Part shown: piece after piece, positions 3,859 through 63,895 of the stretch
Layout: each line of letters opens with the position of its first letter
Numbering within the stretch: the first letter of the stretch is position 1
From: Candidatus Margulisiibacteriota bacterium
GTDB lineage: Bacteria; Margulisbacteria; WOR-1; O2-12-FULL-45-9; XYB2-FULL-48-7
Reading direction: 5' to 3'
Assembly: GCA_018822365.1 (NCBI GenBank)
Contig: JAHJKL010000070.1
Coordinates: 1,941 to 65,940 of the forward strand
Length of the DNA: 64,000 nt
The notes under the pieces: generated by a model
Seen by the model: only the letters and a program-made list of their open reading frames with translations
The model's database searches: none
Told to the model about the DNA's origin: nothing
Made by a program: the position numbers and the translations under genes

Positions 3859-3906
3859 ATTCTAACAAATAAGCCCCCCGTGTCAAGGTAAAGAAAATGT
3901 TATAAT
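3859..3906. promoter_or_regulatory. Divergent promoter region between the oxidoreductase operon and the DUF192 gene
   Basis: Minus strand: -35 TTGACA (plus 3881-3886), a 16-nt spacer, -10 TAGAAT (plus 3859-3864), then 13 nt to the ATG at 3845. Plus strand: extended -10 TGtTATAAT at 3898-3906, 12 nt before the ATG at 3918. Confidence 0.35.
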
Positions 3907-3917
3907 CTTCCCTTTCT

Positions 3918-4379: not shown

Positions 4380-4410
4380 CTATTGTCGTGAATAATGATA
4401 TAAATTAGCC

Positions 4411-7509: not shown

Positions 7510-7530
7510 TTTTGCTACAATGTGTGAACT

Positions 7531-25045: not shown

Positions 25046-26089
25046 TTATAGCATAGAGAGGCGTTTTTTGTAAGAGGAAAAATTGTCTCTGATCTCTTCC
25101 AGGCTGTCTCCGCCAAATTTTTCCAGAAAAGCATTGGCAATTTCCAGCGCGACCACCGCCTCTCCAACCACCCCCGCAGCCTCCACCGCACTGACATCTG
25201 ATCTTTCCACATGAGCCTTGGTTGGTTTTTTTGTTGTTAGATCAACGGAATTCAACGGATTAAGCAGGGTTGAGATCGGCTTCATGGCGGCCTTCAAAAC
25301 GATCGCCTCACCGTTGGTAACCCCACCTTCTAACCCTCCTGCATGGTTGGTTTTATGATAAAAGCCCCGATCCTGGTCATGGAATATTTCATCATGGACC
25401 TTTGATCCATGTAAAGAGGCGGCGGCAAAGCCAAGCCCGATCTCGACCCCTTTAATGGCCGGGATCGCCATAACCGCCTGAGCCAATTTTCCATCCAAAC
25501 GCCGATCCCATTGCGTGTAGCTTCCTAACCCGGCAGGAAGACCAGAAGCAACGACCTCAAATATCCCGCCTAAGGTATCCCCCTCTTCCCGGGCCTTGTC
25601 GATCGCCGAGTCAATTGCTGCTTTCCCTTCTACTCCCCCCTCTTGAACAACCCGGCTGTTTATTTCAATGGCAAATTCCCCCAACAATTTTTTGGCAATT
25701 GCTCCGGCCGCCACCCGACCGGCCGTCTCCCTGGCGGAAGCCCGCTCTAAAACATTGCGGATATCTTTTTGGCTGTATTTGATCGCCCCAGCCAGGTCGG
25801 CATGACCCGGGCGTATCCTGGAGATCGGCTGACCAAAAAACTCGGTACTCTTGTTCTTTATTAGTAAAGAGATCGGACTCCCAATGGTCAGTCCCTGCCT
25901 CACGCCGGATAATAATTCAGCAATATCCTGTTCGATCTTCATCCGTGCGCCGCGGCCCGCTCCGCCTTGCCTGCGCGCCAGATCTTTGGCCAGGTCATCG
26001 GCCGATAAAGGCAAATTTGCCGGACACCCGTCTAAAATAACGGTTAAGGCCGGGCCATGAGATTCTCCAGCAGTCAAATAACGCAACAT
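25046..26089 (-). CDS. aroC: Chorismate synthase
   Basis: The N-terminus is '[25 protein letters not shown]', with canonical motifs throughout. Confidence 0.9.
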
Positions 26090-26115
26090 GCTTATGATTA
26101 TATCATGCTGTTTTA

Positions 26116-29922: not shown

Positions 29923-29953
29923 AATCCCTCCTCTTCTATGGTAAAATTAGCGT

Positions 29954-31630
29954 ATGGAAATCTCCGGCGCGCAAGCATTACTTGAGTCGTTAAAGCACGA
30001 AGGGGTCGATATTATTTTCGGTTACCCCGGCGGGGTTCTACTGCCGCTTTATGACGCCATGTACGCCAATAAGGATATTAAACACATTTTAGTTCGGCAC
30101 GAACAAGGGGCGGCGCATGCCGCCGACGGCTACGCCAGGGCAACCGGCAAAGTTGGGGTCTGCCTCGCGACCTCTGGCCCCGGCGCCACGAACCTGATCA
30201 CCGGGATCGCGACCGCTTATATGGATTCAATTCCGATGGTTGCTATTACCGGACAGGTCGCGACCCCCCTCCTTGGGCGCGATTCCTTCCAGGAGGCTGA
30301 CCTGACCGGTATCACCATGCCGATCACCAAGCATAATTATCTAGTCAAAAAGACCGAAGACCTGCCGCGGATCATCAAAGAGGCCTTTTATATTGCCAGA
30401 ACCGGGCGCCCCGGTCCTGTCTTGATCGATATTCCTAAAGATGTCCTGGTAAATAAGATCAAATATAAATATCCTGATAAAGTGGAGCTGGAAAGTTATA
30501 AGCCGAATTTCGAGGGCCACCCGAAACAAATTAATATGGCGGTCAAGGCGATCGCCGCCGCCCAAAAAGCGGTCATTTACGCCGGTGGCGGAGTTATCGC
30601 CTCTGATGCCAATAAGGAACTTAAAGAGCTGGCTGAAAAGTGCAATTTCCCGGTCACCACCACCTTGATGGGGATCGGCGGTTTTCCCGGCACCCATGAA
30701 TTATCGCTCGGGATGCTCGGGATGCACGGAACAGCTTATGCCAACTACGCGGTGACCGAATGCGACCTGTTGATCTCTATCGGCGCCCGCTTTGACGACC
30801 GGGTCACCGGTCACATCGCCCGCTTTGCTCCCAATGCGAAAATCATCCACATTGATATTGATCCGGCGGAGATCGGCAAGAATGTCCGGGTTGATGTGCC
30901 TATAGTCGGTGATGTTAAAAAAGTGCTGCAAGCCCTGTTGGCCAAGCTCCCGGCCAAAGAGAAAAACCAGCCCTGGCTCGACCAGATCGGCGAATGGAAA
31001 AAGAAGTTCCCGCTCTCCTACAAAAAGGAAGGGGGGCTCAAGCCGCAATTTATCATTGAAGAGCTCTACGCCCTGACCAAAGACCGGGAAACAGTCATTG
31101 TCACCGAAGTCGGCCAGCACCAGATGTGGGCCGGCATGTTCTATCAATACGATAAACCGCGCAACTGGATCTCTTCCGGCGGTTTAGGGACCATGGGCTT
31201 TGGTCTGCCGGCCGCCAACGGAGCCCAGTTTGGGCGGCCTAACGCGCTGGTGGTCGATATTGCCGGTGACGGTTCGATCCAGATGAATATCCAGGAGTTG
31301 ACCACCGCGGTCAACAACCGCCTGCCGATCAAGATCTTTGTGCTCAACAACTGTTTTTTGGGGATGGTCCGGCAGTGGCAGGAGCTGATCTACGACCGGC
31401 ACTATTCCCATACCCAGCTCTGCAATAATCCCGACCTGGTGAAGATCGCCGAAGCTTACGGGGCGGTCGGCCTGCGGGTCACCAAAGAAGAAGAGGTCCG
31501 CCCGGCCATGGAAAAAGCGTTGGCGATCAACGATCGTCCGGTCCTGATCGATTTTGTAACAGCCAAAGAGGAGAACGTGTTCCCCTTTGTCCCACCCGGG
31601 CAGGCGATCAATGAAATGATCATTGATTAG
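29954..31630 (+). CDS. ilvB: Acetolactate synthase large subunit
   Basis: ThDP-enzyme motifs 'GYPGGVLLPLYDA' and 'GDGSIQMNIQEL' are present. Confidence 0.9.
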   Translation: MEISGAQALLESLKHEGVDIIFGYPGGVLLPLYDAMYANKDIKHILVRHEQGAAHAADGYARATGKVGVCLATSGPGATNLITGIATAYMDSIPMVAITGQVATPLLGRDSFQEADLTGITMPITKHNYLVKKTEDLPRIIKEAFYIARTGRPGPVLIDIPKDVLVNKIKYKYPDKVELESYKPNFEGHPKQINMAVKAIAAAQKAVIYAGGGVIASDANKELKELAEKCNFPVTTTLMGIGGFPGTHELSLGMLGMHGTAYANYAVTECDLLISIGARFDDRVTGHIARFAPNAKIIHIDIDPAEIGKNVRVDVPIVGDVKKVLQALLAKLPAKEKNQPWLDQIGEWKKKFPLSYKKEGGLKPQFIIEELYALTKDRETVIVTEVGQHQMWAGMFYQYDKPRNWISSGGLGTMGFGLPAANGAQFGRPNALVVDIAGDGSIQMNIQELTTAVNNRLPIKIFVLNNCFLGMVRQWQELIYDRHYSHTQLCNNPDLVKIAEAYGAVGLRVTKEEEVRPAMEKALAINDRPVLIDFVTAKEENVFPFVPPGQAINEMIID

Positions 31631-34494: not shown

Positions 34495-35178
34495 TTAAAA
34501 TTGAAGTCTTAGTGAGTTTTTCCTTAACCAGGCCCTTCGCTGTTTATGGTCGGGGATGACCGAGGAAACCTTAGCCCAGAAATGACACGAATGGTCAAGA
34601 TGGCACAGATGGCTCAACTCGTGGACAACGACGTAATCGATCACTTCTATTGGGGCCATGATCAGCTTCCAGTTGAAATTAATGCTTCCTCGCCTGCTGC
34701 AGCTTCCCCATTGCCGCCGGTGCTCTTTTATGGCAACCTTGCCTGGGAATAGCCGCATCCGGGCCGCGTAAAGCTCAAGTCTTGCGACGATCAAACGTTT
34801 AGCTTCATTAATATACCATTCTCTGATCAGCCTTTTCCGGTTAATGATGCCGGTCTCCTGCCCGCCAGTCGCGACAAGTATCTCTTCAGCCCGCAAGTAA
34901 ACGCCTTTCGGCAGATGGCCCCCTTGTGACAAGGTATGCTCTTTCCCTAAAAAGAGAAGCTTCTCTCCAGGCTTGAACTCCTTAGGCTTCGGCCATTCCC
35001 GGCTGGCAAAATAAGCCAGCTTGGACTCGATCCAGCCCTGTTTGTCTCTCAATACCTTAACGATCTCCGATTTTCCAACCCATTTGGGAGCGGCAACCAC
35101 GACCCCTTTATGAGGGTCGATCGTTATCCCAATACTTCGCCGCCGGCCGCTTCTTTTTAATTGATAAGAAAAAGCCAT
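34495..35178 (-). CDS. YgjP-like (DUF45) metal-dependent hydrolase
   Basis: It has the 'VVVHELSHLCHLDHS' HExxH motif. The ATG at 35178 (MAFSYQ...) is preferred over the upstream ORF-track start. Confidence 0.65.
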   Translation of the reverse strand: MAFSYQLKRSGRRRSIGITIDPHKGVVVAAPKWVGKSEIVKVLRDKQGWIESKLAYFASREWPKPKEFKPGEKLLFLGKEHTLSQGGHLPKGVYLRAEEILVATGGQETGIINRKRLIREWYINEAKRLIVARLELYAARMRLFPGKVAIKEHRRQWGSCSRRGSINFNWKLIMAPIEVIDYVVVHELSHLCHLDHSCHFWAKVSSVIPDHKQRRAWLRKNSLRLQF

Positions 35179-35218
35179 GACCAGATGATAACATATCAAT
35201 ATGTTATAATTCATTATT

Positions 35219-35815
35219 ATGAAAAACAAAATATTATTGGTTTTCTTATTGCTAATTTTCGCGGCGACCCTGACCGCGGCAGGAAGGACAAAAAAAATGG
35301 AAAAAACTTACGCGATCCTGGAGACCTCGATGGGAAAGATCGTTGTCGAACTGCTCGATAAAGAGGCGCCGCAAACGGTCAAGAACTTTGTCGGCCTGGC
35401 CAAAGGAGAGATCGGCTGGATGGACCCTAAGACCGGCGAGATCGAAAAGAAGCCCCTTTATAATGGAACGATTTTTCATCGGGTAATTCCCGAGTTCATG
35501 ATCCAAGGGGGAGACCCTTTGGGGAATGGCATGGGGGGACCCGGCTATCGGTTTGAAGACGAAACCCCGCAAGAGACCAGCTTTGATGAGCCCGGGAGAC
35601 TTGCCATGGCCAATTCGGGGCCCAATACCAATGGAAGCCAGTTCTTCATTACGGTCGCCGAGACCCCATGGCTTGACGGAAAACACACGATCTTTGGCAA
35701 GGTGGTCAAGGGGTACGATATCGCAGAAAAGATCTCCACGGTTGGCCGCGATGAGCGCGACCGGCCGCTCAAAGAAGTTGTTTTAAAAAAAGTGACGATC
35801 ACCAACAAACCATGA
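35219..35815 (+). CDS. ppiB: Cyclophilin-type peptidyl-prolyl cis-trans isomerase, secreted
   Basis: A signal peptide is followed by 'FHRVIPEFMIQGGDP' and 'MANSGPNTNGSQFFIT'. Confidence 0.85.
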   Translation: MKNKILLVFLLLIFAATLTAAGRTKKMEKTYAILETSMGKIVVELLDKEAPQTVKNFVGLAKGEIGWMDPKTGEIEKKPLYNGTIFHRVIPEFMIQGGDPLGNGMGGPGYRFEDETPQETSFDEPGRLAMANSGPNTNGSQFFITVAETPWLDGKHTIFGKVVKGYDIAEKISTVGRDERDRPLKEVVLKKVTITNKP

Positions 35816-36264
35816 ACGAATTAGCCGTTTTTCTCCTGGCGGCTATCCCGGTCTTTGAGGTCAGAGGAGCGGTTCCGCTGGGAATTGCGGTTTACAAGCT
35901 GGCGCCGCCTACCGTTGTTCTGCTTAGCATTTTAGGCAGCATTCTGCCGATCTTCCCGCTGCTCTGGTTCCTGGAAAACATTACCGAACACCTGGAAAAG
36001 ATCCCCGTATTTAATAATTTTCTCCAATGGTTATTCACCCGAACCCGTTCGAAAAGCGGTCTGATCAAAGAGATGGAATTGATCGGCTTAACCATTTTTA
36101 TCGCCATCCCCTTCCCCGGAACCGGGGTCTGGACCGGAACGATCGCCGCCTATCTCCTCGGCCTGCGCTGGGGTCCGACCTTTTTTGCCGGATTTATCGG
36201 AACAACTATCGCATCCATTTTGGTTGCCGCCGCGACCTTAGGCGTGATAAACTTTATCCTATGA
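35812..36264 (+). CDS. Small multidrug-export-like membrane protein (COG2426 family)
   Basis: It is a 150-aa protein with four TM segments. It overlaps the PPIase stop and the dxr start. Confidence 0.5.
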   Translation: MNELAVFLLAAIPVFEVRGAVPLGIAVYKLAPPTVVLLSILGSILPIFPLLWFLENITEHLEKIPVFNNFLQWLFTRTRSKSGLIKEMELIGLTIFIAIPFPGTGVWTGTIAAYLLGLRWGPTFFAGFIGTTIASILVAAATLGVINFIL

Positions 36265-37394
36265 AAAAAGGGATCGTCATCCTTGGCTCCACCGGCTCCA
36301 TCGGGAAGCAGGCGCTGGAGATCGTCTCCATCTATCCCAGCCGGCTGAATGTTGTTGCCCTGGCCGCCAAGAACGATATCCCGGTCCTGGTCGAACAGAT
36401 CAATAAGTTCCAGCCCCAACTTGTCGCGCTGGCAACCGAAGAAGGAAAACAGAAACTACTTGCCGCTTTGCCGGAGATCAAAGCGGAGGTTGTTGTTGGC
36501 CCGGATGGTTTAGTCAAAGCAGCCACCATGACGACCGCCAAACTGGTCGTGGTCGCGATTCCCGGCGCCGCCCCGCTCTCAGCCGCTTTTGCTGCTGTTC
36601 ATGCCAAGAAAGATATCGCCCTCGCCACCAAAGAGGTCCTGGTTGCCGCCGGGGAACTGTTTATTAAAGAGGTTGTTGCTAACAAAGTTAAATTATTTCC
36701 GATCGACAGCGAACACAGCGCCATCGCCCAGTGTTTAAAAGGGGAAGACCGTAAAACCATTAAAAAGGTCATCCTAACCGCTTCAGGCGGTCCGTTCCTG
36801 AAAACCCCTGCTGAAAAGTTCGCTTCATTAACCGCCAAAGAAGCATTAAAACACCCGACCTGGAAGATGGGGCCCAAGGTCACCATCGATTCCGCGACCT
36901 TAATGAATAAGGGACTGGAAGTGATCGAAGCGCACCACCTTTTTGGGCTGGATTATTCCCAGATCGAAGTTATTATCCACCCGGAAAGCACCATTCACTC
37001 TATGGTTGAGTTTATTGACGGATCGGTCATCGCCCAGTTAGGCGCCCCTGACATGCGGATCCCGATCCAGTATGCGCTCCTGGAAGAAGAACGACAACAA
37101 AATATGTGGGGTCGGCTCGATTTTACCAAAGTCGCGCAACTGACGTTCCAAAAACCTGACTTTGTTAAGTTCCCCTGTCTGAAATACGCCTATGACGCGG
37201 GAAAAAAAGGGGGGACGACAACCGCGGTGCTTAACGCCGCCAGTGAAGTGGCGGTCCGCCAGTTCCTTGACGGCAAGATCAACTTCGCCCAGATCCCCCA
37301 GCGGATTAAAGCGGTCCTTGATAAACACGAGAGCCAACCGATCGCCTCGCTGGAGACCATCCTGGCTGCCGATACCTGGGCCAGATCAAATTAA
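36262..37394 (+). CDS. dxr: 1-deoxy-D-xylulose 5-phosphate reductoisomerase
   Basis: The true start is 'MKKGIVILGSTGSIGKQALEIV' at 36262. The longer ORF-track N-terminus is an artefact. DXR motifs are present throughout. Confidence 0.9.
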
Positions 37395-37481
37395 ATATTT
37401 TTTATTCTCCTGAATTTTCTTCATCTTTTTAACGATATATCAGTAAGCGACTGTTTAAGTCAAGCAAAAAGAGGCGTTTTT

Positions 37482-38111
37482 TTGGGAATAATTTCAGCTG
37501 TTATAAGAAATATTGGGGGGCAAATTAAACCAAGATCACCATGCCTTGTTAATAGAGGACCATATCGCCTCCCCGGCAATACGGCTCCCGTTCAACCACA
37601 AGAAGCCTTTATCAGAGAAAAGCTCGCGAGAAGCATTTCAACGATGAGGACTGATAAAGCCGGCAGGATTACGTATCTTTCGTTGAAAAATATAACCGAT
37701 AGCGACATTCCCCCATTGCAAGCCTTGTCTAATTTGCAGCGGTTGTACTTATGGGGAAGTCAAGTTTCAGATGCCGGTTTGTCTCACCTCTCATCTCTCT
37801 CTAACCTGCAAGAATTGTATCTTTTTAGCAGTCTTGTCACTGATGCCGGCCTCCCCTCTCTTTCATCCTTATTAAATCTGCAAATATTGTATCTGCGTAA
37901 CGCTCAAATTACTGATGCCGGCCTCCCACAACTCTCTCACCTGTCAAATTTATATTGGTTGGATCTAACAGGCGCCAGAGTCTCTGACCTAGGTTTAGCG
38001 CATCTTTTATCCTTAACTAATTTGCAGCGGCTGGAACTAAGGCACACCCAGGTTACGGAAGCCGGGATCACTAATTTTAACAAAACAATGCCAACCTGTA
38101 ATATTTATTAA
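37482..38111 (+). CDS. Leucine-rich repeat protein (24-aa RI/Cys-containing-type LRRs)
   Basis: There are six repeats of the form 'LSxLSNLQxLYLxxxxVTDAGLxxLSxL'. No signal peptide is present. The start is TTG or a downstream ATG (MRTDK). Confidence 0.65.
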   Translation: MGIISAVIRNIGGQIKPRSPCLVNRGPYRLPGNTAPVQPQEAFIREKLARSISTMRTDKAGRITYLSLKNITDSDIPPLQALSNLQRLYLWGSQVSDAGLSHLSSLSNLQELYLFSSLVTDAGLPSLSSLLNLQILYLRNAQITDAGLPQLSHLSNLYWLDLTGARVSDLGLAHLLSLTNLQRLELRHTQVTEAGITNFNKTMPTCNIY

Positions 38112-38120
38112 CGCCCTAAC

Positions 38121-38156
38121 GTCCTGGCCACCGATACCTGGGCAAGGACCGCCTAA
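38121..38156 (+). repeat. Degenerate duplicate of the dxr 3' end (12 codons plus stop)
   Basis: 'gtcctggccaccgatacctgggcaaggaccgcctaa' encodes VLATDTWARTA*, compared with the dxr terminus 'atcctggctgccgatacctgggccagatcaaattaa' (ILAADTWARSN*). The downstream 'cctgaaattcc' also echoes 'cctgaattttc' found after dxr. Confidence 0.55.
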
Positions 38157-38195
38157 CAACCTGAAATTCCCGCCGATAGTTGACGACGTTTTTTT

Positions 38196-39080
38196 ATGAT
38201 ACCAAAAGTGAAGTTTTACGATCTCACTGCCGCTGGAAGACGGTTCCTCAACGATAACGAGGTCTGTACTTTTTATTTCGATCGCACCAATTTAAGGGCT
38301 CGAGGAGGGATGTCACATATCCATGAACAAACCTTGCTCAGCGGCAAAAAGGTCGCCACCAAGGGGCTCCCGGACGATAAGCCGATCAACCCCGAAAACG
38401 TGTTCTATCTAGCCAATGAAGCCAGGGGGCTGGCCACCCTTCTTCAAGACAAACCGCACCCAAATATTATTGATTATTTCGGCCTCGTCCGCATCGGCGA
38501 ACGCCCCTTTATCATAATGGAACTGTTAGAGGAGCAGGACCAATCAAATCGCTCTCTCGGCTCCCCCCTCCCGGTGGATGAAGTTTTAACGATCGGCCTG
38601 GGGATCGCGAAAGGATTGCATCACGTCCACAAGCACGGCTTGACCCACCGGGACGTAAAACCAAGCAATTTTGTCGGCACGAAACTGATCGATTTCGCCT
38701 TTTGCTGGAAAAACGGCCTCCCCATCGTCATTGACGGTCACCAGCATAGCAGCGGCACCTCCGGCTACTTTTCCCCGGCGATCGTTAGCGGCTCCGAACC
38801 GACCATTCAAGACGATATATATTCCCTTGGTGTCTCTCTCTTTGAGATGCTCACCGGCAAATTAGCCCTCCCCCCCGGGATCGATCCCCATATTTCCAGG
38901 AATCTCCTGGGGAGCAGGATCGCTGATCTTGCTGTTTGCCGGGGTTTAACGCCAGGTATTGCTGAACTCCTATTTACCGCGACCAAAACTACGCCTGAAG
39001 TCGGGGTCATGAGGGAAAGTGGTTTTTCCAGTTGCCGCGACGTCATCCGCTTTATCAAATCCTTAATTAACGTCGATTGA
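38196..39080 (+). CDS. Atypical protein-kinase-like protein (possible pseudokinase)
   Basis: It has the catalytic loop 'HRDVKPSNF' and 'DFA' in place of DFG. There is no canonical GxGxxG loop, and an APE-like motif is absent. Confidence 0.6.
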   Translation: MIPKVKFYDLTAAGRRFLNDNEVCTFYFDRTNLRARGGMSHIHEQTLLSGKKVATKGLPDDKPINPENVFYLANEARGLATLLQDKPHPNIIDYFGLVRIGERPFIIMELLEEQDQSNRSLGSPLPVDEVLTIGLGIAKGLHHVHKHGLTHRDVKPSNFVGTKLIDFAFCWKNGLPIVIDGHQHSSGTSGYFSPAIVSGSEPTIQDDIYSLGVSLFEMLTGKLALPPGIDPHISRNLLGSRIADLAVCRGLTPGIAELLFTATKTTPEVGVMRESGFSSCRDVIRFIKSLINVD

Positions 39081-39118
39081 TCGTGAAAGCCTCGTCTTTT
39101 TTATGATATAATTATTTA

Positions 39119-40837
39119 ATGAGTAAATTTGATTTGGAAACCCTGCGCCACTCAACTTCCCACGTCCTGGCCCAAGCGGTCATGGAAATCTTTCCCGGAG
39201 TAAAACTGGGGATTGGGCCTTCGACCGACGACGGATTTTACTACGACTTCGACCTGCCGCAAGCAATCACCCCGGAAGACCTCCCCAAGATAGAAAAAGC
39301 GATGAAAGATATCTGTAAAAAGAACCAGAAATTCGAACGGCGGGAAGTCAGCAAGGACGAAGCAATTAAATTATTCGAGGAAAGAGGAGAAAAATACAAG
39401 GCCGAAATCATCAAAGAAATAGAGGCCGACAAGGTTTCGCTCTATCATAACGGCGATTTTTTCGATCTTTGCCGCGGCCCTCACGTTGATTTTACCGGCC
39501 GGATCAAGGCCTTCAAGCTCCTCTCCATTGCTGGCGCCTACTGGCGCGGCCTTGAAACTAATCCGATGATGCAACGGATCTATGGGACCGTTTTCCCAAC
39601 TAAAGAGGAGCTTGATGCTTACTTAAAGAACCTAGAAGAGGCTAAGAAACGAGACCACCGCAAACTTGGTAAGGAGCTCGACCTCTTTTCGCTCCACGAA
39701 GAAGCCGGGGCCGGGCTGGTTTATTACCATCCAAAAGGAGCCATGCTCCGGAGTTTGATCGAAGATTTCATGAAGAAGGAAAATCTTAAGCGCGGGTATG
39801 AACAGGTTTACATTCCCCACATCGCCAAGATCGACCTTTGGAATACTTCCGGCCACACCAATTATTACCGCGAAAATATGTATTTTATGAAGATCGATGA
39901 ACAGGAATACGTGGTCAAACCAATGAACTGCCCCGGTCACATCCTGATCTACAGCCGGAAGACCAGAAGTTATCGCGACCTGCCGATCCGCTACTTTGAG
40001 TTTGGCACGGTTTATCGCTATGAAAAATCCGGGGTCTTGCATGGCCTTCTCCGTGTCCGGGGTTTTACCCAAGATGACGCTCATATCTTCTGCCGTGAGG
40101 ACCAGCTCGAAGGGGAGATCGTTCAAACCTTAGATTTTATCGCGTTTGTCATGAAAACCTTTGGTTTTGACTTCAAGATCAACCTTTCCACCCGCCCGGA
40201 AAGCTTTGCCGGGACGGCTGATAATTGGGACAGAGCAACCGCTATTCTGGAAAAAGCGCTTCAGGATCGGGGGCTTCCGTTTGAGATCGACCCAGGAGCA
40301 GGGGTTTTTTACGGTCCAAAGATCGATGTTAAACTGAAAGACTCCCTCGGCCGCGCCTGGCAGGGACCAACAGTCCAGGTCGACTTCAATCTCCCCCAGC
40401 GCTTTAACCTTAATTATATTGGCGAAGATGGCAAGCAACAGACCCCGGTTATGGTTCATCGCGCTATTCTGGGCAGCCTGGAGCGATTTATTGGCGCTCT
40501 AATTGAACATTACGGGGGGGCATTCCCATTCTGGCTCGCCCCCACCCAAGTCTCTATCTTGCCTGTTTCCGACCGTCATAATGATTACTCGGAAAAAGTC
40601 GCCGCCCAGCTCCGGGAGATCGGCGTCCGGGTCGAGGTTGACGCCAGGCGGGAAACGATCGGGGCCAAGATCAGGAACGCCCAGTTGGCCAAGGTCCCCT
40701 ATATGCTGATTCTTGGCGATAAAGAAGAACAAGCCGGCACGGTCGCCATCCGCTCCAGGGAAAAGGGTGAGCTTGGCGTTAAGACCATCCAGGATTTTTC
40801 CTTTGACCTCCGCCCTGAAATGCGCTATAATACATAG
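39119..40837 (+). CDS. thrS: Threonine--tRNA ligase (lacks N-terminal TGS domain)
   Basis: It begins at the N2/editing region 'LRHSTSHVLAQAV'. Class II motifs and the anticodon-binding domain are present. It is 572 aa against about 640 aa typical. Confidence 0.9.
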   Translation: MSKFDLETLRHSTSHVLAQAVMEIFPGVKLGIGPSTDDGFYYDFDLPQAITPEDLPKIEKAMKDICKKNQKFERREVSKDEAIKLFEERGEKYKAEIIKEIEADKVSLYHNGDFFDLCRGPHVDFTGRIKAFKLLSIAGAYWRGLETNPMMQRIYGTVFPTKEELDAYLKNLEEAKKRDHRKLGKELDLFSLHEEAGAGLVYYHPKGAMLRSLIEDFMKKENLKRGYEQVYIPHIAKIDLWNTSGHTNYYRENMYFMKIDEQEYVVKPMNCPGHILIYSRKTRSYRDLPIRYFEFGTVYRYEKSGVLHGLLRVRGFTQDDAHIFCREDQLEGEIVQTLDFIAFVMKTFGFDFKINLSTRPESFAGTADNWDRATAILEKALQDRGLPFEIDPGAGVFYGPKIDVKLKDSLGRAWQGPTVQVDFNLPQRFNLNYIGEDGKQQTPVMVHRAILGSLERFIGALIEHYGGAFPFWLAPTQVSILPVSDRHNDYSEKVAAQLREIGVRVEVDARRETIGAKIRNAQLAKVPYMLILGDKEEQAGTVAIRSREKGELGVKTIQDFSFDLRPEMRYNT

Positions 40838-42763: not shown

Positions 42764-43180
42764 TTAAAGTTCCTTCCTGTTTTCAAGATTTCCGTCTATT
42801 AATTCACCGCAGATAAAAGCCCTGGCTTGCGAAAAACAGCCTATCGAATAAACCCGGCCCCCCTCCCTCTCCCTGACTACTTTAACCTCTCCCCGACCTA
42901 AAACAAACCGTTCGCCGATCGCGCTTCCCGCCAACCAGGCTTTTATATTCCCCGAAGGGGGTGGCATATCGGTGAACCAGGCATGGTTTTTATCGATCCT
43001 TGCGCTGGCTAATTCCAATCCACCGGATGCCAGCCAATACGCCCTTTCCTTGTCAAACAAAGCCCTTGTCGTCCAGAGGGTATTATAAACTATTCTGGCG
43101 GTAATTACACCCAAGGCCAGCAACGTTCCTCCAATTATTATTACCAACAAAAGAGCGACACCATGTCTCATTTTTTGCAT
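42764..43180 (-). CDS. Pseudopilin-like protein (minor, GspK/J-like)
   Basis: It has an N-terminal hydrophobic helix and is the last gene of the prepilin operon. Confidence 0.45.
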   Translation of the reverse strand: MQKMRHGVALLLVIIIGGTLLALGVITARIVYNTLWTTRALFDKERAYWLASGGLELASARIDKNHAWFTDMPPPSGNIKAWLAGSAIGERFVLGRGEVKVVREREGGRVYSIGCFSQARAFICGELIDGNLENRKEL

Positions 43181-43578
43181 ACAATTATTTCCCTTTTATT
43201 GATTTCTATCGCCAGCTCTCTGCTGCTGATCAATTTGCAAACGAACCGGTCAATCTCTCCAGCGTTGGTCAACGGTTGCTTGACCGCGGTTTTCCTTTTT
43301 ACTATCCCTTCTTCATAAACATAGCCGCTCCCAACCCCATCAATAACCAAAGAGATCTCCTTTGACGAGACAATCGTCTGGCTTGCAGCCGATCTAAGCT
43401 CTCTGGTTAATCGAGCGGCCAAGATACTTTCGGCCTGGCGCTTTAAGCTGGTTTTTATTATCTTGTCGGCGCTCCGGACCTCTGCTGAAAACAAGAGAAT
43501 GATCGTCGGAATTATAGCCGCCAGCAAACTTATCGCCAACAGCGCTTCGATCAATGTAAAGCCTTTACGTCCGCTCAT
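43168..43578 (-). CDS. Prepilin-type N-terminal cleavage/methylation domain protein (minor pseudopilin)
   Basis: 'KGFTLIEALLAISLLA' is a class III signal. Confidence 0.65.
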   Translation of the reverse strand: MSGRKGFTLIEALLAISLLAAIIPTIILLFSAEVRSADKIIKTSLKRQAESILAARLTRELRSAASQTIVSSKEISLVIDGVGSGYVYEEGIVKRKTAVKQPLTNAGEIDRFVCKLISSRELAIEINKREIIVCKK

Positions 43579-43892
43579 TTTGCCCTCCGCAAGGTTGAAA
43601 GAAGAAGCGGCTTATGGCCCAAACTGTTAATTATCAAGTCAATTTTGACAATATTTTCGGCATATAGTGTAACAATAAAATGATGATCCGGGCCATCAAC
43701 GAGTTTTGTATAATCATCCGCCAGCTCGATCTCGGCCAGTGCTTTTTGGGCGACAGCTATGGAATTGGCATAATATTGTTCCTGGTCGGTTATTTTCCCT
43801 GTCTGCTTAAAGATCGACAGCGAGCCAAATGAGAAAAGAAAAAGCAAAGCGGCAGCGACCAGGACTTCTATCAAAGTGTATCCTTTATTCAC
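43575..43892 (-). CDS. Prepilin-type minor pseudopilin (GspI-like)
   Basis: 'KGYTLIEVLVAAALL' is a class III signal. Confidence 0.65.
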   Translation of the reverse strand: MNKGYTLIEVLVAAALLFLFSFGSLSIFKQTGKITDQEQYYANSIAVAQKALAEIELADDYTKLVDGPDHHFIVTLYAENIVKIDLIINSLGHKPLLLSTLRRAK

Positions 43893-49193: not shown

Positions 49194-50489
49194 TTAAATA
49201 AATTGCCGGACCATTTCGGCAAATCCCGGGAACGAGGTTTCGATGCAATCGGTATCTTCAATTACTGTCCGGCCAGTCGCGCAAAGCCCGGCGATCGCCA
49301 TCGCCATGGCGATCCGGTGGTCGCCGGAACTTTCAATCGTTCCCCCTTTTAGCTTTACCGGCCCTGATATCCGCAAGCCATCATCAAGCTCCTCGACTGC
49401 CACCCCAAACTTACGAAGCTCCGTCGCGATCGTTTTGATCCGGTCGCTCTCTTTAACTCTTAACTCCCGGGCATCCCGGATCTCAGTAACCCCTTCCGCT
49501 TGCGACGCCAGCACGGCAATGATCGGGATCTCGTCAATAATTCTCGGGATTATCTCCCCGTCAATTTTAATGCCGTGGAGCCGGGCTGATCGGGCAACGA
49601 TCTCGCCTCGCGGTTCGCCCGATATAATAATTTCATTTTCAACCTCAACCGAGCCCCCCATGCGATGAATGATCTCTAAAATACCGGTCCTGGTCGGATT
49701 AAGTCCAACATTCCTGATCCTTAGCTCCGAGCCCGTAACCATGGTCGCCGCCGCCAAAATAAACGCGGCCGAAGAAATATCCCCCGGAACATCAACCTCT
49801 CTGGCGTTTAGTTCCTGGGTTGGCTTCAAAGTGACCAATCCACCCCGTTCGATCGTTCCCCCAAAATGTTCAATCATGCGCTCGGTATGGTCCCTTGAAA
49901 AGTTTTTCTCTCGAACGGTGGTTTCCCCCTCCGCGTATAATCCGGCCAACAGGACCGCAGATTTGACCTGGGCGGACGCGACCGGCAGTTCATAGTTTAT
50001 CCCGTGTAATTTCCCGCCATTAATTATTAAGGGAGGAAAGAGTTCTCCCTCTTTGCCCGGCATTGCTCGCCCCTGAATATCGGCCCCCATTGACCTAAGC
50101 GGTTTAGCGATCCGCCCCATCGGCCGTCGCCCGATCGACTCGTCGCCACTGATCTCTGCCGTAAAGCTCTGTCCCGCTAAAATCCCGGCAAGCAAACGGA
50201 TGGTAGTTCCCGAATTGCCGGTGTAAAGTCGTTCTCTGGGCCGGACCAACCCCCTGAGCCCCTTCCCCTTAACTCTGATCTCAGTTTTGTTTTTCTTGAT
50301 CTCGATCCCCAGCTTCCGGAAGCAGTCGATCGTCGCCAGGCAATCGGCGCTGGCCAAAAATCCGGTTATTTTGGTCTCGCCATTAGCGATAGAACCAATC
50401 ATGATCGCCCGATGGGAGATGGACTTATCTCCCGGGACGGTTATTTCCCCCGTAATGGCTTTGGCTTGCTGGACAAGGAGTTGGCTCAT
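49194..50489 (-). CDS. aroA: 3-phosphoshikimate 1-carboxyvinyltransferase
   Basis: It contains 'ITVPGDKSISHRA' and 'LGNSGTTIRLLAG'. Confidence 0.9.
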   Translation of the reverse strand: MSQLLVQQAKAITGEITVPGDKSISHRAIMIGSIANGETKITGFLASADCLATIDCFRKLGIEIKKNKTEIRVKGKGLRGLVRPRERLYTGNSGTTIRLLAGILAGQSFTAEISGDESIGRRPMGRIAKPLRSMGADIQGRAMPGKEGELFPPLIINGGKLHGINYELPVASAQVKSAVLLAGLYAEGETTVREKNFSRDHTERMIEHFGGTIERGGLVTLKPTQELNAREVDVPGDISSAAFILAAATMVTGSELRIRNVGLNPTRTGILEIIHRMGGSVEVENEIIISGEPRGEIVARSARLHGIKIDGEIIPRIIDEIPIIAVLASQAEGVTEIRDARELRVKESDRIKTIATELRKFGVAVEELDDGLRISGPVKLKGGTIESSGDHRIAMAMAIAGLCATGRTVIEDTDCIETSFPGFAEMVRQFI

Positions 50490-50529
50490 GACGCTATAAG
50501 TATACCAAACTATTGGCGACTTTCACACA

Positions 50530-55813: not shown

Positions 55814-56938
55814 CTACATTTTTGGCAAATATTTCGCCGGGTTGACCGGTCTTCCATTTTTACGCACTTCAAAATGCAAATGCGGGCCGGTTGAATAACC
55901 GGTGCTCCCTTCCAGCCCGATCGTTTGTCCCTGTATTATTTTTGATCCGACGGTCGCGTAGATCCTGGACATGTGGGCATAGACCGTGGACATCCCTCGC
56001 CCATGATCAATAACAACTGCTTTGCCGTATCCGTCCCACCAGCCGGCAAAGATGATCTCTCCGGAATCGGCCGCAACTATCGGCGATCCGTATTTATCCG
56101 CGATATCGATCCCAGTGTGTCTTCCCTGGATCCTATGCCTGACACCGAATCTAAGAGTGATCCTGCCTTTTAACGGCCAGATAAATTTCCCTGTGCTCGT
56201 GACCTCAACCCCGGACCTCTCAGCCACTTTCTTCTGGATCAAGACCTCGAGTTCCCTGGAGCTTTGCTCCAGCTCGGCAACCTTCTTTTCGTAACCCTTT
56301 TCTCGTTCCTTTAGTTCGCTGGCTATCTTCTTTTTTTCTTCCAGCTGCTGCGCGATCTTGTCTTTTTCGCCCGCAACTACCACCACCAGGCTTTTTATCT
56401 CCTTGGTCCGGTCCTGAAGGATCGATCTCTTTGACTTGGAGGCTGACAAATAATTCTTTGTCTTTTTGATCAGGGTCGCATCGCTCTCGATCACCCGCTG
56501 AAAATAATAGAACCGGTTCAGAAAATCAGACATTGACCTTGAGCCCAAAAACAGATCAAGATAATTTATCCGTCCATTGACGTAAGCTTCTCGAACTCTT
56601 TTCCTCAATATATCGGCTGATTTGCCGATCTCACTCTCTGCCTTGCGCAGTTCAACCGAGAGCTGGCCGATCTCTTTTTCGTTGGTTTGGATCTTTTCCT
56701 TGGCCATGCTGATCTTGCGATTGGCGCTTTTCAGCTGCCGCGTGACTACAACAAGCTTACCCAGGGCCTCTTGTCTTTGCTCCCGGGTCTGCTTTAGTTT
56801 TTCCTTGTTCTCTTCCAGGGCCTGGCGGATCGTCTCCAACTTTGTCTGCTCATCGGGCGGGGCCGCTTCTTCCGCTCTAGCCTGACATGCCAACCCAGCA
56901 ATGAACAGGATAATAATTATCTTGACCAGAAGCTTCAT
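55814..56938 (-). CDS. M23 peptidase with N-terminal coiled coil (EnvC-like)
   Basis: A signal peptide and a long coiled coil are followed by the C-terminal 'HTGIDIA...GYGKAVVIDHGRGMSTVYAH' LytM domain. Confidence 0.8.
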   Translation of the reverse strand: MKLLVKIIIILFIAGLACQARAEEAAPPDEQTKLETIRQALEENKEKLKQTREQRQEALGKLVVVTRQLKSANRKISMAKEKIQTNEKEIGQLSVELRKAESEIGKSADILRKRVREAYVNGRINYLDLFLGSRSMSDFLNRFYYFQRVIESDATLIKKTKNYLSASKSKRSILQDRTKEIKSLVVVVAGEKDKIAQQLEEKKKIASELKEREKGYEKKVAELEQSSRELEVLIQKKVAERSGVEVTSTGKFIWPLKGRITLRFGVRHRIQGRHTGIDIADKYGSPIVAADSGEIIFAGWWDGYGKAVVIDHGRGMSTVYAHMSRIYATVGSKIIQGQTIGLEGSTGYSTGPHLHFEVRKNGRPVNPAKYLPKM

Positions 56939-56978
56939 GAACTATAAATACTATCACAATTGAACAGCTCTCTCAAGA

Positions 56979-62606: not shown

Positions 62607-63803
62607 TTAATTGCTGGTCAGCGCCTGCTCCAGGACCAAGGCTTCCGTTGAGGCGATCCTTTTGATCGAATTAACAAAGGCGGCTATTCCTACTTTATCG
62701 TTCTCTGTTAAGCCTTCTTTTTCGGCCGCGATCCTGATCCTGGGAAGCATGGCTTCGGCTTTTATGGAGACATTTTTAAGCTGGCTCCGCTCCGTTAATA
62801 TCTTTTCCAACCAGACATTCCCCGGATCGTTTGGCTGTTCATACATGATTTTCATCGCCTCTTCCGCTTCATCGCGGCAACTTTCAGCCGCTAAGAATAA
62901 TGCTTTGCCAAACCCATCGTCATTCGCGGTTAAAATCTGTTTAACATTATTTCTGGCAAATATTTCTTTCCAGGTTGCGTCCGTCCCTTTTATGGTTTTT
63001 TCTCCCCATTTCCCCCAATTATAGGCTTCATAAACAGCTCCGCCCGGAACCAACAATGGGGTTGCCAGAAAGTCCAGCCCGGCAATCTCCAAAAACTGGT
63101 ACCCGTTCCCGGCCGCATATTCCTGCTGGGTGCTAAAGCCAAAGAGCATTTTAAGCGTCTCTTCGGTTTGCTTTCTTGCCTTGTCTAGGTCGGTTGTTCC
63201 TGAGCTATCGCTTCCCGGCCAAATTTCCCCTAACGTTCGCAGAAGAAGCCCTCTTTCCAGACGACCGGCGATCCACCTCGCAGCCGATAGTTTTATTTGT
63301 TGATTGCGCGGGTTTGCTTCCGGCAATGAGCCTGCGGCATAAAAGCTGCCGGATTCGGTTTTTTCCTTGGACCGGCTCTTCCCGGCCAAAAAACATGAAT
63401 AGCGGGCTACCGCCTTGGTTTGTTCAGTTATTATTGCCCAAGTGCCGGACTCATGGTATTTTTTCCAGGGGGAATCGTCGCCAACAATGATCTTTTCTTC
63501 ACCAACCGGCAGGAACTTCCAGTCGGTAAAATTATAGGCCATTAAATTGGCGGTTGCCTGCAATGGGAAACCTGCGGTCCGGGAGCCGTCCTTTATCTCC
63601 CAGTCGACTTCGAACGCTTTCCCGGCCGGCAGGGCAACGACATTCAAGGGAATAAATGGAAAAGAAAGCCCCACCTCCACCTCTGTTTCGCTGGGCGAAA
63701 ACATCAATGACTTTATTCCGCCTAATTTAATGCCATTTGAGTCGGCCAATGTAACCGTGGAAAACATCGACAAGAGGCAAACAAGAACCAATGCATTTTT
63801 CAT
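62607..63803 (-). CDS. Secreted hypothetical protein (about 398 aa)
   Basis: The ATG at 63803 gives the signal peptide 'MKNALVLVCLLSMFSTVTLA'. There is no recognisable domain. An extended -10 TGtATAAT lies immediately upstream. Confidence 0.5.
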   Translation of the reverse strand: MKNALVLVCLLSMFSTVTLADSNGIKLGGIKSLMFSPSETEVEVGLSFPFIPLNVVALPAGKAFEVDWEIKDGSRTAGFPLQATANLMAYNFTDWKFLPVGEEKIIVGDDSPWKKYHESGTWAIITEQTKAVARYSCFLAGKSRSKEKTESGSFYAAGSLPEANPRNQQIKLSAARWIAGRLERGLLLRTLGEIWPGSDSSGTTDLDKARKQTEETLKMLFGFSTQQEYAAGNGYQFLEIAGLDFLATPLLVPGGAVYEAYNWGKWGEKTIKGTDATWKEIFARNNVKQILTANDDGFGKALFLAAESCRDEAEEAMKIMYEQPNDPGNVWLEKILTERSQLKNVSIKAEAMLPRIRIAAEKEGLTENDKVGIAAFVNSIKRIASTEALVLEQALTSN

Positions 63804-63895
63804 ATTAATGAAATTATACACCTCCTGGCTTTTGACTCAAGTCAAAGACTGGCCGCTTCTTATGAAGTATCTTTTCTAAACAAGGAGGATTACAC

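Follow-up and report, generated by a model that had tools for sequence, protein, structure and literature searches.

Organisation of the dxr-thrS locus

In the 64-kb stretch of DNA analysed here (the window), an LRR protein gene and a Hanks-type Ser/Thr protein kinase gene lie between dxr and thrS (Table 1). The flanking genes are well conserved, with the dxr product showing 90% amino acid identity to that of sister species L085 and L086 and 67-73% to those of other Saganbacteria, and the thrS product 95% to that of L085. The LRR gene product matches Pfam LRR_4 (7.5e-16) and has a full-length homologue in L085 (49% identity over 142 aa), where the corresponding ends read MGIISA.. and KTMPTCNIY* against MGAITS.. 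and KKMPHCHVFI* in the window; the GC content of the gene (0.41-0.46, vs about 0.50-0.55 in the flanks) was counted for a foreign origin. The kinase matches Pfam Pkinase (8.4e-24) and is only 36-40% identical to the kinase of L085, while its homologue in L083 (P0002) is full-length, 82-83% identical and conserved over the N-terminal 38 aa, which supports the ATG at 38196 as the start.

The locus structure of the window recurs in two further independent assemblies, L001 and L002, which differ from the window by 2 and 11 SNPs, respectively, none of them in the repeats described below and 4 of the 11 in L002 inside the LRR gene; an assembly artefact, which an earlier note on this DNA had listed for checking, is thereby excluded. 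The same note had reported that no recombinase gene accompanies the insertion, and a Pfam search across 30.5-43.4 kb (identical or related loci) agrees with this, as does the absence of a recombinase within 6-8 kb of the locus in the window, L001 or L085. Terminal inverted repeats and an attC-like hairpin were also sought at the locus, and neither was found.

Table 1. Features of the dxr-thrS locus (positions in the window)
Feature	Position	Strand	Remarks
dxr (1-deoxy-D-xylulose-5-phosphate reductoisomerase)	36261..37394	+	377 aa, intact; three DXP reductoisomerase Pfam domains, E 1e-35 to 1e-41
Junction copy A, working dxr 3' end (ILAADTWARSN*)	37359..37394	+	
Spacer A, 5' region of LRR gene	37395..37481	+	
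LRR protein gene, later insert	37482..38111	+	209 aa, TTG start
9-nt joint CGCCCTAAC, LRR stop codon to copy B	38112..38120	+	read from sequence
Junction copy B (VLATDTWARTA*), native dxr 3' end in displaced position, no longer coding	38121..38156	+	
Spacer B, ancestral dxr-kinase spacer	38157..38195	+	
Hanks-type Ser/Thr protein kinase ('type 1'), older insert	38196..39080	+	294 aa
Kinase-thrS spacer with predicted thrS promoter	39081..39118	+	
thrS (threonyl-tRNA synthetase)	39119..40837	+	572 aa, intact; Pfam tRNA_SAD, tRNA-synt_2b, HGTP_anticodon

Gene order in relatives

In six related lineages (L003, L004, L006, L009, L171 and L172/173), dxr is followed by thrS within 7-40 nt, which bears out both the proposed original adjacency of the two genes and the view of the LRR and kinase genes as insertions, and answers the synteny check that had been suggested. 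In L083 and L086, dxr is followed by the kinase gene across one junction and the LRR gene is absent from that position (thrS starts 3' of the kinase in L083, and the L086 contig ends inside the kinase), while the order dxr-LRR-kinase-thrS is shared by the window and L085. The two genes had been described as equivalent, cassette-like arrivals; instead, the kinase is older, being present in L083 and L086 without the LRR gene, and the LRR gene came later. Gene order among these lineages establishes that the junction passed from adjacent dxr and thrS, through gain of the kinase, to gain of the LRR gene.

The dxr-tail duplicate follows the LRR gene in its distribution, as both LRR-bearing loci have it, against 0/9 of the LRR-less loci scanned (L003-L010, L083), a comparison in which the downstream sequence of L086 is too short to be informative and the relic in L170 has a different cargo. 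Of the junction duplication that had been proposed for each insertion, the part concerning the LRR gene holds, this gene being bracketed by two copies of the native junction (dxr tail and some 45 nt of spacer), but no junction duplication is demonstrable for the kinase insertion.

Two copies of the dxr 3' end

Copies A and B match at 26 of 36 positions, a level never reached by shuffled sequences, and the reported duplication of the dxr end therefore stands. A repeat search returned 22/25 identity between 37360-37384 and 38122-38146 (spacing 762 nt), with a 13-nt perfect core, and the local alignment score of 35 compares with 14.3 +/- 2.0 (maximum 26) in 2000 dinucleotide shuffles. A degenerate 22-mer has these two sites only in the 64 kb, even with <=3 mismatches, and zero matches in 100 shuffles. 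Chance similarity or mis-assembly is an extremely improbable source of this repeat: it is short (36 nt) and degenerate in the window, but 0/2000 and 0/100 shuffles reach the observed match, orthologous repeats occur in L085 (on a 455-kb contig) and L170, and the three assemblies agree.

The match is unevenly distributed, with 20/23 identities in the first 23 nt and 6/13 in the last 13 nt (Fisher P=0.018), and such an abrupt divergence after nt 23 is what would be expected at a recipient/donor crossover. In copy A the first 23 nt are native-like, whereas the last 13 nt, CAGATCAAATTAA, would be foreign or novel. Copy B had been regarded as a degenerate secondary copy, yet it is copy B that resembles the dxr tail of L085/L086 more closely (31/36, vs 25/36 for copy A), above all in the last 13 nt (12/13 vs 7/13), although the spacer beside it matches that of the sister only at 24/42. 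It lies next to conserved spacer blocks, and its final 9 nt before the stop codon and the spacer that follows match the dxr end and dxr-kinase spacer of L083. At the level of sequence, these comparisons establish copy B as the original dxr end, displaced and directly followed by the ancestral dxr-kinase spacer. A and B have three states in common, at positions 6, 15 and 16, that are not those of L085/L086, and the left halves of the two copies may therefore come from one lineage. No breakpoint was visible inside dxr by sliding window. The 9-nt stretch CGCCCTAAC shows no significant similarity to dxr or thrS and is probably the non-homologous joint of the insertion.

The earlier note had also pointed to a similar 'cctgaa..' stretch after both copies, and while this similarity is not significant within the window (P=0.20), the block CCTG[AC]A(A)TT lies 3' of every dxr-tail copy in four relatives, so the stretch represents real homology.

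Spacers and the thrS promoter

Spacer A contains CCTGAATTTTC (37409-37419), a -10-like box CATCTTTTTAACGATATATC (37422-37441) and a Shine-Dalgarno GAGG (37471-37474) 7 nt 5' of the TTG start. It is homologous to the dxr-LRR spacer of L085 (44/74), and for its first ~45 nt the homology extends to the dxr-kinase spacer of the window and those of L083, L085 and L086. Spacer B contains CCTGAAATTCC (38160-38170), CCGATAG (38173-38179), TTGACG (38180-38185) and a T7 run (38189-38195); its blocks align with L083, L085-B and L086, while the T-run is specific to the present genome, L083 having TAAAAGTCTGT in its place. In the kinase-thrS spacer, where no Rfam leader or riboswitch was found, CCTCGTC (39090-39096) and T6 (39097-39102) precede TGATATAAT (39104-39112), which ends 6 nt 5' of the thrS ATG, scores 10/12 in a promoter scan and has the upstream TG present. 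The form TGnTATA[AC]T is found 6-10 nt 5' of the thrS ATG in L003, L004, L006, L008, L009, L083, L085 and L171, and TGATATAAT is best read as the extended -10 box of a predicted leaderless-type thrS promoter. An extended -10 box of this type also precedes many other genes in the window.

A start motif had been described before the LRR gene, the kinase gene and thrS. The strings do exist, and the pair of exact TTTTTTATGATA copies at 38190 and 39097 is beyond chance (P=0.002 for the CGT-TTTTTTATGATA alignment), but the pre-LRR region reaches only P=0.06 against the thrS copy, through an alignment on the 37422-37441 box rather than the T-run at the LRR start, and the T-runs are not conserved at orthologous positions of L083 or L085. 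As a junction duplication the motif was rejected, what stands before thrS being the conserved extended -10 and the T-runs being absent in relatives. Likewise, the 'ATGATA' that the kinase was thought to borrow as a pseudo-start from the thrS leader corresponds, before thrS, to the conserved extended -10 TGATATAAT, while the ATG-ATA of the kinase is a conserved Met-Ile start, L083 having ATGATT with no T-run before it.

Parallel insertions in related genomes

Another example of the dxr-tail repeat around an LRR gene has been found in L085, where it is 122 nt long, 121/122 identical and begins at the LRR stop codon, giving a joint of 0 nt (the stop abuts the dxr fragment) vs 9 nt in the window. 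That the right joints of the two species both fall within 0-9 nt of the LRR stop may point to one ancestral event, or to a cassette with a defined end. In L170 the cargo at the same junction differs (a YgiT/MqsA-type zinc-finger ORF) and is followed by a relic in which a 66-nt thrS 5' fragment is fused to a ~139-nt dxr 3' fragment at a 7-nt microhomology, AAGCGGT; a joint of this kind is what circularisation or tandem duplication of a dxr3'-cargo-thrS5' segment should produce. L008 also has a different insert at the dxr/thrS junction.

A proposed route for the gain of the LRR gene

We favour, with moderate confidence, a history of two nested gains at the ancestral dxr|thrS junction of one Saganbacteria (WOR-1) clade, the LRR gene having arrived by homology-anchored integration; the recombination pathway, the existence of a donor carrying dxr-LRR, and whether the insertions in the window and L085 were one event or two are what we infer. 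In the older step, the ~290-aa Ser/Thr kinase gene would have been placed between dxr and the thrS promoter. In the younger step, the LRR gene with its own 5' region would have been inserted at the very 3' end of dxr, on DNA that also included a dxr-tail-plus-spacer segment from another Saganbacterium and that paired with the resident dxr end. Integration may have proceeded by a single homologous crossover of a circularised fragment (insertion-duplication, Campbell-type) or, as a close alternative, by homologous crossover at only one end, the other end being joined illegitimately, and neither would need a dedicated recombinase. Either would leave dxr intact with a partly foreign tail (copy A, RSN*), then the insert, and then the original 36-nt end of dxr (copy B, RTA*), displaced downstream as a non-coding relic that is still joined to the old dxr-kinase spacer.

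Several observations weigh against this proposal. The shared stretch of 23-36 nt, with its 13-nt core, is short for a RecA-dependent crossover unless it was trimmed from an L085-like length, and no genome carrying dxr(..WARSN*)-LRR, and so qualifying as donor, was identified. For the states shared by A and B, a linear one-ended event or a duplication in situ would be a better fit than a circle contributed by a distant donor, and the L085 repeat is 99% identical while its LRR gene is 49% identical to that of the window, which requires two independent recent insertions or gene conversion. The similar position of the right joints in both species and the lack of a visible breakpoint inside dxr also count against the proposal.

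The in-situ duplication would involve unequal exchange at a microhomology that gave a spare copy of the junction, with the LRR gene entering one of the copies later, by capture or transfer in a separate event, and is in our judgement distinctly improbable. The duplicated part would be the dxr 3' end with its spacer (plus, in L170, the 5' end of thrS). The L170 thrS5'|dxr3' joint at AAGCGGT is a classical novel joint of a tandem duplication, the two copies in the window share the three lineage-specific states, and spacers A and B are homologous over ~45 nt. However, this reading requires an extra, unexplained event for the LRR gene and predicts initially identical spacers, whereas A and B agree at about 52-64% only, and this holds for L085 too, despite its 99% identical tails; the sudden divergence in the last 13 nt fits foreign DNA better than drift, and no thrS fragment is detectable in the window.

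It is also unlikely, if a little less so, that a single ancient LRR|dxr-fragment insertion was followed by spread of the islet through double-crossover exchange in dxr and thrS, with the relic trimmed to 36 nt here and the LRR gene lost by repeat-mediated deletion in L086 and L083. The right joints at nearly the same position and the homology of the LRR genes and their upstream spacers end to end are consistent with such a history. The kinase types are moreover incongruent with dxr and thrS (window-L083: kinase 82-83%, dxr 72%; window-L085: kinase 36-40%, dxr 90%, thrS 95%), which shows recombinational exchange at the islet. Against this, gene conversion would be needed for the 121/122 repeats of L085, as would two independent LRR losses, and an initial illegitimate or single-crossover event is still required, which makes this a variant history and not another mechanism.

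Comparison with known systems

The proposed homology-anchored gain is close to Campbell-type insertion of a circular, non-replicating DNA bearing the 3' fragment of a gene (the 'insertion-duplication mutagenesis' of the laboratory), which likewise leaves an intact gene, the insert and a 5'-truncated direct second copy of the gene end, uses no dedicated recombinase and is reversible by recombination between the repeats. In E. coli, single crossovers of circular molecules with a partial segment gave duplications of 109-950 bp (PMC3240628), as compared with 36, 122 and about 139 nt in the present locus family. The present case differs in being a natural event in an uncultivated phylum, with an inferred circle and with homology in the window that is very short and diverged (26/36). 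Homology-facilitated illegitimate recombination, as in S. pneumoniae, Acinetobacter baylyi and Pseudomonas stutzeri, resembles it in the use of a conserved upstream gene as anchor and in the microhomology joint, here in relative L170; classical events of this kind combine insertion with deletion of recipient DNA at 3-10 bp of microhomology (PMC3240628), whereas duplication is seen here. The present locus is also like the displacement model for orphan effector, immunity or toxin 3' ends at T6SS, Rhs and CDI loci, where a new module takes the 3' end of a conserved gene and the old end with its partner is kept downstream (PMC5361080), except that here a housekeeping enzyme gene takes the place of a polymorphic toxin as anchor, and the cargo consists of LRR protein and kinase instead of effector-immunity pairs.

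Elements such as e14 and phage 21 at E. coli icd integrate in the 3' end of a gene, carry a substitute end, and encode an integrase with a fixed att core. As at dxr, their target stays functional with a slightly different element-borne 3' end and the native end becomes the far direct repeat, but the dxr locus lacks an integrase, its insert amounts to one gene of 0.7 kb, and repeat boundaries differ from lineage to lineage. Site-specific integration, with the dxr tail (~23-36 nt core) as att site and the LRR gene as a minimal cassette served by a recombinase elsewhere, is a quite unlikely reading; the unit would resemble a cis-mobilisable element or an Xer-exploiting module that brings a substitute dxr end. 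In its favour, direct repeats with the 13-nt perfect core flank a one-gene insert, dxr remains intact and takes a surrogate stop codon in unchanged register, L085 and L086 agree at 36/36 positions over the last 36 nt of dxr (dxr overall 86%), and the unit contains an imperfect 9-nt dyad, GTCCTsGCC..GGCmAGGAC. However, repeats of 36, 122 and about 139 nt leave no fixed site boundary, the 36/36 run is not exceptional because further 30-41-nt identical runs occur in L085/L086 dxr, the dyad folds no better than shuffles (z -0.4, -1.0) and is absent in L083, the L170 joint lies at a thrS/dxr microhomology and not at a common core, and the three loci searched to 6-8 kb are recombinase-free.

Integron gene cassettes are likewise one-gene units in series at one site, with older ones pushed downstream, although no intI, attI or attC paired inverted repeats are found here and the units have their own expression signals. 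In genomic islets or hot spots between core genes, which are exchanged through homologous recombination in their flanks, as here, highly conserved flanks (dxr 90%, thrS 95%) enclose content that is divergent or variable in presence (LRR 49% or absent, kinase 36-40% vs 82%, other inserts in L008 and L170); the present case is of very small scale, with one or two genes, and its relic repeats record the route of one gain. The locus appears to carry a clear, if rather ordinary, trace of genes gained with no dedicated recombinase involved, and recombination between its direct repeats would be a simple way to lose the LRR gene precisely.

Organisation of the dxr-thrS junction

In the Saganbacteria/Margulisiibacteriota (WOR-1) genome from which the window comes, dxr and thrS are separated by a leucine-rich repeat (LRR) protein gene, a copy of the dxr end and a gene for a Ser/Thr kinase, as set out in the table below. 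Two further independent assemblies of the same species (L001, L002) have the same locus structure, with repeats that do not differ from those of the window, and the arrangement is therefore not an assembly artefact. The long form of the kinase is backed by 38 N-terminal residues conserved in L083, a contig with a close kinase homologue; both gene callers begin the kinase 38 codons too late, at Met39 (38310, 256 aa). The LRR gene has been left uncalled in the NCBI annotation of L002, and two gene callers disagree there. The downstream copy of the dxr end lies in frame with the LRR gene, 12 nt past its TAA (38109-38156), and read-through would add RPNVLATDTWARTA; this shared frame is probably due to chance, since the corresponding copy is out of frame in the sister-species locus L085. 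At 42764-43611 (-), 3-4 kb downstream, several small genes lie clustered; one of them encodes a prepilin-type N-terminal methylation domain (type IV pilin/pseudopilin-like), and the cluster could be relevant to DNA uptake.

Features of the dxr-thrS junction, kinase alleles of related loci and extended -10 boxes of the window
Feature	Position	Remarks
dxr	36261-37394	followed by 87-nt spacer
LRR-protein gene	37482-38111	TTG start; followed by 9 nt
Copy of dxr end (36 nt)	38121-38156	followed by 39-nt spacer
Ser/Thr kinase gene	38196-39080	followed by 38-nt spacer
thrS	39119-40837	
Kinase alleles (~290 aa, two deeply diverged)	window 38196-39080; L083 1760-2650; L085 10216-11094; L086 2438-2509	
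Extended -10 boxes before ATG	3898-3920; 4396-4413; 7510-7533; 29935-29956; 39104-39121	
Extended -10 boxes	26089-26105; 50489-50506; 56938-56955; 63803-63820	minus strand
Extended -10 boxes	35178-35221	both strands

Order of states in related genomes

An earlier note on this DNA had proposed that dxr and thrS were originally adjacent, and synteny comparison bears this out, as thrS directly follows dxr in six lineages of Saganbacteria (L003, L004, L006, L009, L171 and L172/173; dxr 67-73% identical). At these empty junctions the thrS ATG is preceded, at 6-7 nt, by a TGATATA[AC]T box, which in many cases overlaps the stop codon of dxr. The one close kinase homologue (82% identity), on L083, occurs in the order dxr, 45 nt, kinase, thrS promoter and thrS, with a single junction and no LRR gene. 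A dxr search led to two sister species at 90% identity, of which one (L086) has the kinase directly after dxr and lacks the LRR gene, and the other (L085, a 455-kb contig) has dxr, LRR gene, kinase and thrS. In L085 the LRR gene is flanked by two direct copies of a 122-nt stretch from the dxr 3' end (121/122 identical), the second of which begins at the final base of the LRR stop codon. In a systematic scan a duplicate of the dxr tail was present in both loci that bear the LRR gene and in none of the nine assessable loci that lack it (L003-L010, L083), L086 being outside this result as it has too little downstream sequence. These states in relatives indicate a series that leads from dxr|thrS to dxr-kinase-thrS and then to dxr-LRR-relic-kinase-thrS.

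Identity of the two dxr ends

The duplication of the dxr end, reported from inspection in the earlier note, was recovered by repeat search as a 22/25 identity between copies 762 nt apart. It stands well clear of shuffled sequence, with a local alignment score of 35 against 14.3 +/- 2.0 in 2000 shuffles, and a degenerate 22-mer of the dxr tail matches these two sites only, with 0 matches in 100 shuffles. Over the full 36 nt the copies agree at 26 positions, and the agreement is uneven, with 20/23 in the first 23 nt and 6/13 in the last 13 nt (Fisher P=0.018).

Comparison with the dxr tail of the sister species (VLAADAWARTA*) shows which copy is native. The downstream copy (VLATDTWARTA*) matches this tail at 31/36 positions, whereas the functional upstream copy (ILAADTWARSN*) does so at only 25/36; in the last 13 nt the values are 12/13 and 7/13, respectively. 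The downstream copy also runs straight into a spacer with blocks common to the dxr-kinase spacers of L083, L085 and L086 (in order, CCTG[AC]AATT, 12-14 nt, CGAT[AG], TTGAC). Because of this better match and the contiguity with conserved spacer blocks, the downstream copy is identified as the original dxr end, displaced, and the upstream copy as native in its left part and foreign in its right part. The similarity switch after nt 23 of the upstream copy is consistent with a homologous crossover. The same two blocks recur in the spacer after the upstream copy, and this spacer shows homology (44/74) to that 5' of the L085 LRR gene, from which it follows that the duplicated unit comprises the dxr tail plus ~45 nt; the dxr-downstream region of another Saganbacterium thus seems to have come in with the LRR gene.

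Several further traces of the event were sought. Sliding-window identity of dxr against L085 and L086 gave no clear switch that would mark a recombination breakpoint within the gene, and a dxr or thrS fragment hidden in the 9-nt joint or in the LRR 3' end was rejected by local alignment (P=0.27 and 0.16). The L083 dxr tail is uninformative as an acquisition from the window clade, with WARTAL-type tails also found in other Saganbacteria (P0326, P0296), and the agreement of the L085 and L086 tails at 36/36 positions is a weak sign of a conserved site, given other identical runs of 30-41 nt in the gene.

How the LRR gene came in

Cassette-like insertion at dxr-thrS, as claimed in the earlier note, is upheld for the LRR gene. 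The further claim that each insertion duplicated the junction holds for the LRR gene, where dxr tail and spacer are repeated, and not for the kinase gene, for which no duplication is demonstrable. In the window, in L085 and in L170, a locus of a further related lineage, an intact dxr is followed by an insert and then by a 5'-truncated direct copy of the dxr end, and no machinery has been found beside these parts at the locus. This anatomy, an intact target, an insert and a truncated direct copy of the target's end, is that of insertion-duplication, in which a circular DNA with part of the target integrates by a single crossover. In a study of Escherichia coli, duplications of 109-950 bp were the main product of such single crossovers of circles, whereas classical homology-facilitated illegitimate recombination yields insertion with deletion, at 3-10 bp of microhomology (PMC3240628). 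Here recipient sequence has been duplicated, unlike the deletion usual in the latter process, which points instead to single crossover of circles (PMC3240628); the right joint of the window lies at 38112-38120, and microhomology at a non-homologous joint is seen only in the relative L170.

A comparable pattern has been described for T6SS, Rhs and CDI loci, where in the 'displacement' model a conserved gene receives its 3' end from a new module, and the former end is pushed downstream together with its partner (PMC5361080). The order seen here, dxr with a new tail, then the LRR gene and, after it, the former tail with its spacer and the kinase gene, resembles these arrays of orphan modules, although the content differs, being dxr, an LRR protein and a Hanks kinase, with no polymorphic toxin and cognate immunity gene. 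On the strength of the anatomy, the E. coli precedent and the displacement pattern, integration that was anchored in homology and independent of a recombinase is the reading we lean towards, with reserve; it would have proceeded either by circular single crossover or by a one-ended linear event at the dxr end.

The LRR gene may have come in by one ancestral insertion or by two recent ones. The right-hand joints, which lie 0 nt (L085) and 9 nt (window) after the LRR stop, speak for a single event, while the 99% identity of the L085 repeat and the far better preservation of the downstream copy in the window (31/36) than of its adjoining spacer (24/42) speak for two recent events.

A third lineage shows the same junction with different cargo. 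In L170 (6143-6721), the C-terminus encoded by dxr (72.5% identical) is extended and aberrant (..WAREVVSATCEFRCNPL*), and this long tail is followed by an ORF of the YgiT/MqsA zinc-finger type. After this cargo a 66-nt pseudo-fragment of the thrS 5' end is fused to a dxr 3' fragment of ~139 nt with a normal-looking tail, and the fusion point falls inside a 7-nt microhomology, AAGCGGT, found in both thrS and dxr. Such a joint would be expected if illegitimate recombination had turned a dxr3'-cargo-thrS5' segment into a circle or a tandem duplicate, and the thrS(+66)|dxr(-185) joint at AAGCGGT resembles what a circle-closure joint would look like. In L008, another WOR-1 genome, an unrelated 204-aa ORF (8173-8787), with no match in Pfam, NCBIfam or PADLOC, lies between dxr and thrS without a dxr-tail relic.

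A bolder reading takes the dxr-end/thrS-promoter junction as a recurrent landing pad of Saganbacteria, at which self-contained units of an LRR 'sensor' and a Ser/Thr kinase would be gained, lost and swapped, each piece of dxr tail serving as its own homology arm, so that recombinase-free cassettes would excise as circles between direct repeats and re-integrate by single crossover in any genome with dxr; the fast-diverging LRR/kinase pair would then possibly be a defence or sensing module. We regard this as improbable. The LRR gene as a dedicated mobile cassette was rejected, its best database homologues (39-47% identity) lying in unrelated contexts, and so was a phage origin, with no kinase relatives in viral contigs and a sole LRR match of 38% in a giant-virus bin.

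Comparison with known mobile elements

As in site-specific integrative elements of the e14/phage 21 type, including cis-mobilisable remnants, the insert is bounded by direct repeats derived from the target (attL/attR-like). Unlike in such elements, independent insertions share no fixed core or boundaries, and no recombinase gene was found by Pfam within 6-8 kb on either side, as the earlier note had also observed of the insertion. Insertion at a fixed att site by a recombinase whose gene lies elsewhere in the genome is less likely than homology-anchored integration because the distance from the start of the repeat to the dxr stop varies (36 nt in the window, 122 nt in L085 and ~185 nt in L170), and because no recombinase is found within that distance.

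Integron cassettes carry an attC site with imperfect inverted repeats (R''/L''...L'/R') that folds as a hairpin, a feature that the locus lacks. Folded as DNA, the regions 3' of the LRR gene and of dxr, the tail copies and the junctions did no better than shuffles (z -0.38, -0.99, -0.16), and an attC/hairpin reading was rejected; no local inverted repeats were reported at the locus, and the single GCCTAAC at 38149 is compatible with chance. Integrons also have an adjacent intI and attI, whereas here only housekeeping genes were identified by Pfam (in L001, corresponding to 30.5-43.4 kb of the window, and in L085). Transposons and insertion sequences differ in their transposase domain, of which there is none here, in their terminal inverted repeats, absent from the insert ends, and in their target-site duplications of 2-15 bp, as opposed to the duplications of 23-122 nt seen here.

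Divergence of the LRR and kinase genes

The window and L085 are close in the flanking genes (dxr 90%, thrS 95% identical), yet their kinases are only 36-40% identical; these are nevertheless collinear end to end, and both have unusual GGMS and KLIDFAF motifs. The kinases of the window and L083, on the other hand, are 82-83% identical, with dxr at only 72%. This conflict between the distribution of kinase types and the relationships of dxr and thrS implies allele exchange between lineages at the locus. Presence of the LRR gene is independent of kinase type, as the first type occurs with it in the window and without it in L083, and the second with it in L085 and without it in L086.

Homology between the window and L085 LRR genes extends over their whole length, at 49% identity, and the LRR region has a low GC content. 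The window and L002 differ by 11 SNPs in 7.8 kb, of which four (37630, 37757, 37760 and 37825) affect the 630-nt LRR gene, two of these being non-synonymous when codon positions are read by hand; dxr has one SNP, and the kinase gene and thrS three, all synonymous, the kinase and thrS proteins being 100% identical. This suggests that selection on the LRR gene is relaxed or diversifying. The locus is a small hypervariable LRR/kinase islet exchanged by recombination. The LRR proteins of the window (37482-37499) and L085 (9209-9226) start with MG(I/A)I(S/T)(A/S), without a signal peptide; the resemblance to the eukaryotic N-myristoylation motif (MGxxxS/T) may be coincidence.

The kinase is a generic Hanks-type enzyme. 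Models in PADLOC for PD-T4-6, a single-gene anti-phage defence system, match both kinase types (3e-30 and 2e-29), but in the generic catalytic domain only and no better than generic models, with comparable matches to Pfam Pkinase, a PknB-type NCBIfam model and StkP structures. Among JGI metagenomes, searched with generic kinase motifs as patterns for further kinase-bearing loci, the best match was 36% identical.

The thrS promoter and the T-run motif

The ATGATA before thrS, which the earlier note took for a pseudo-start in the thrS leader, instead belongs to an extended -10 box, TGATATAAT (39104-39112), that ends 6 nt before the ATG and is kept in all relatives. TGnTAnnnT occurs 6-11 nt 5' of the ATG, without a Shine-Dalgarno sequence, at ~11 other genes of the window, with an identical ATGATATAAT 5' of the gene starting at 26089, and TGATATAAT with at most one mismatch is found 21 times, against 9.0 +/- 3.4 expected. 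Such boxes mark many operon-first genes of the window, which suggests that leaderless or near-leaderless mRNAs are common in this Saganbacterium. Between 30 and 46 kb no Rfam match (E<=1) to a thrS leader RNA, T-box or riboswitch was obtained.

As for the T-run 'start motif' said to precede the LRR gene, the kinase gene and thrS, a 12-mer is indeed common to the kinase start and the thrS promoter (P=0.002). The T-run is absent before the L083 kinase (TAAAAGTCTGTATGATT) and before the L085 LRR gene (GAGGTCACTATG), and that of thrS is kept in L083 and not in L085; as neither the T-run of the kinase gene nor that of the LRR gene is conserved, they are not relics of junction duplication.

Implications

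Of the model first put forward, ancestral adjacency, cassette-like insertion and duplication of the junction by the LRR gene stand, the role given to ATGATA was wrong, and the kinase part is unsupported. The class of event is a known one, of which the locus offers a clean natural case in a setting that is new. The -10 boxes 6-11 nt before the start codon apparently drive many genes here, which affects the calling of start codons. The series of states is unusually complete for an uncultivated phylum: it runs from an empty junction through a single insert to a pair of inserts with a relic, and is joined by a parallel case in which the relic is longer and fresher; together, these states indicate that a gene can be added inside the end of an essential gene while leaving that gene unbroken and with no need for the machinery of a mobile element. 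Short 3'-end relics of housekeeping genes are a searchable signature of recombinase-free gene gains in metagenome-assembled genomes.
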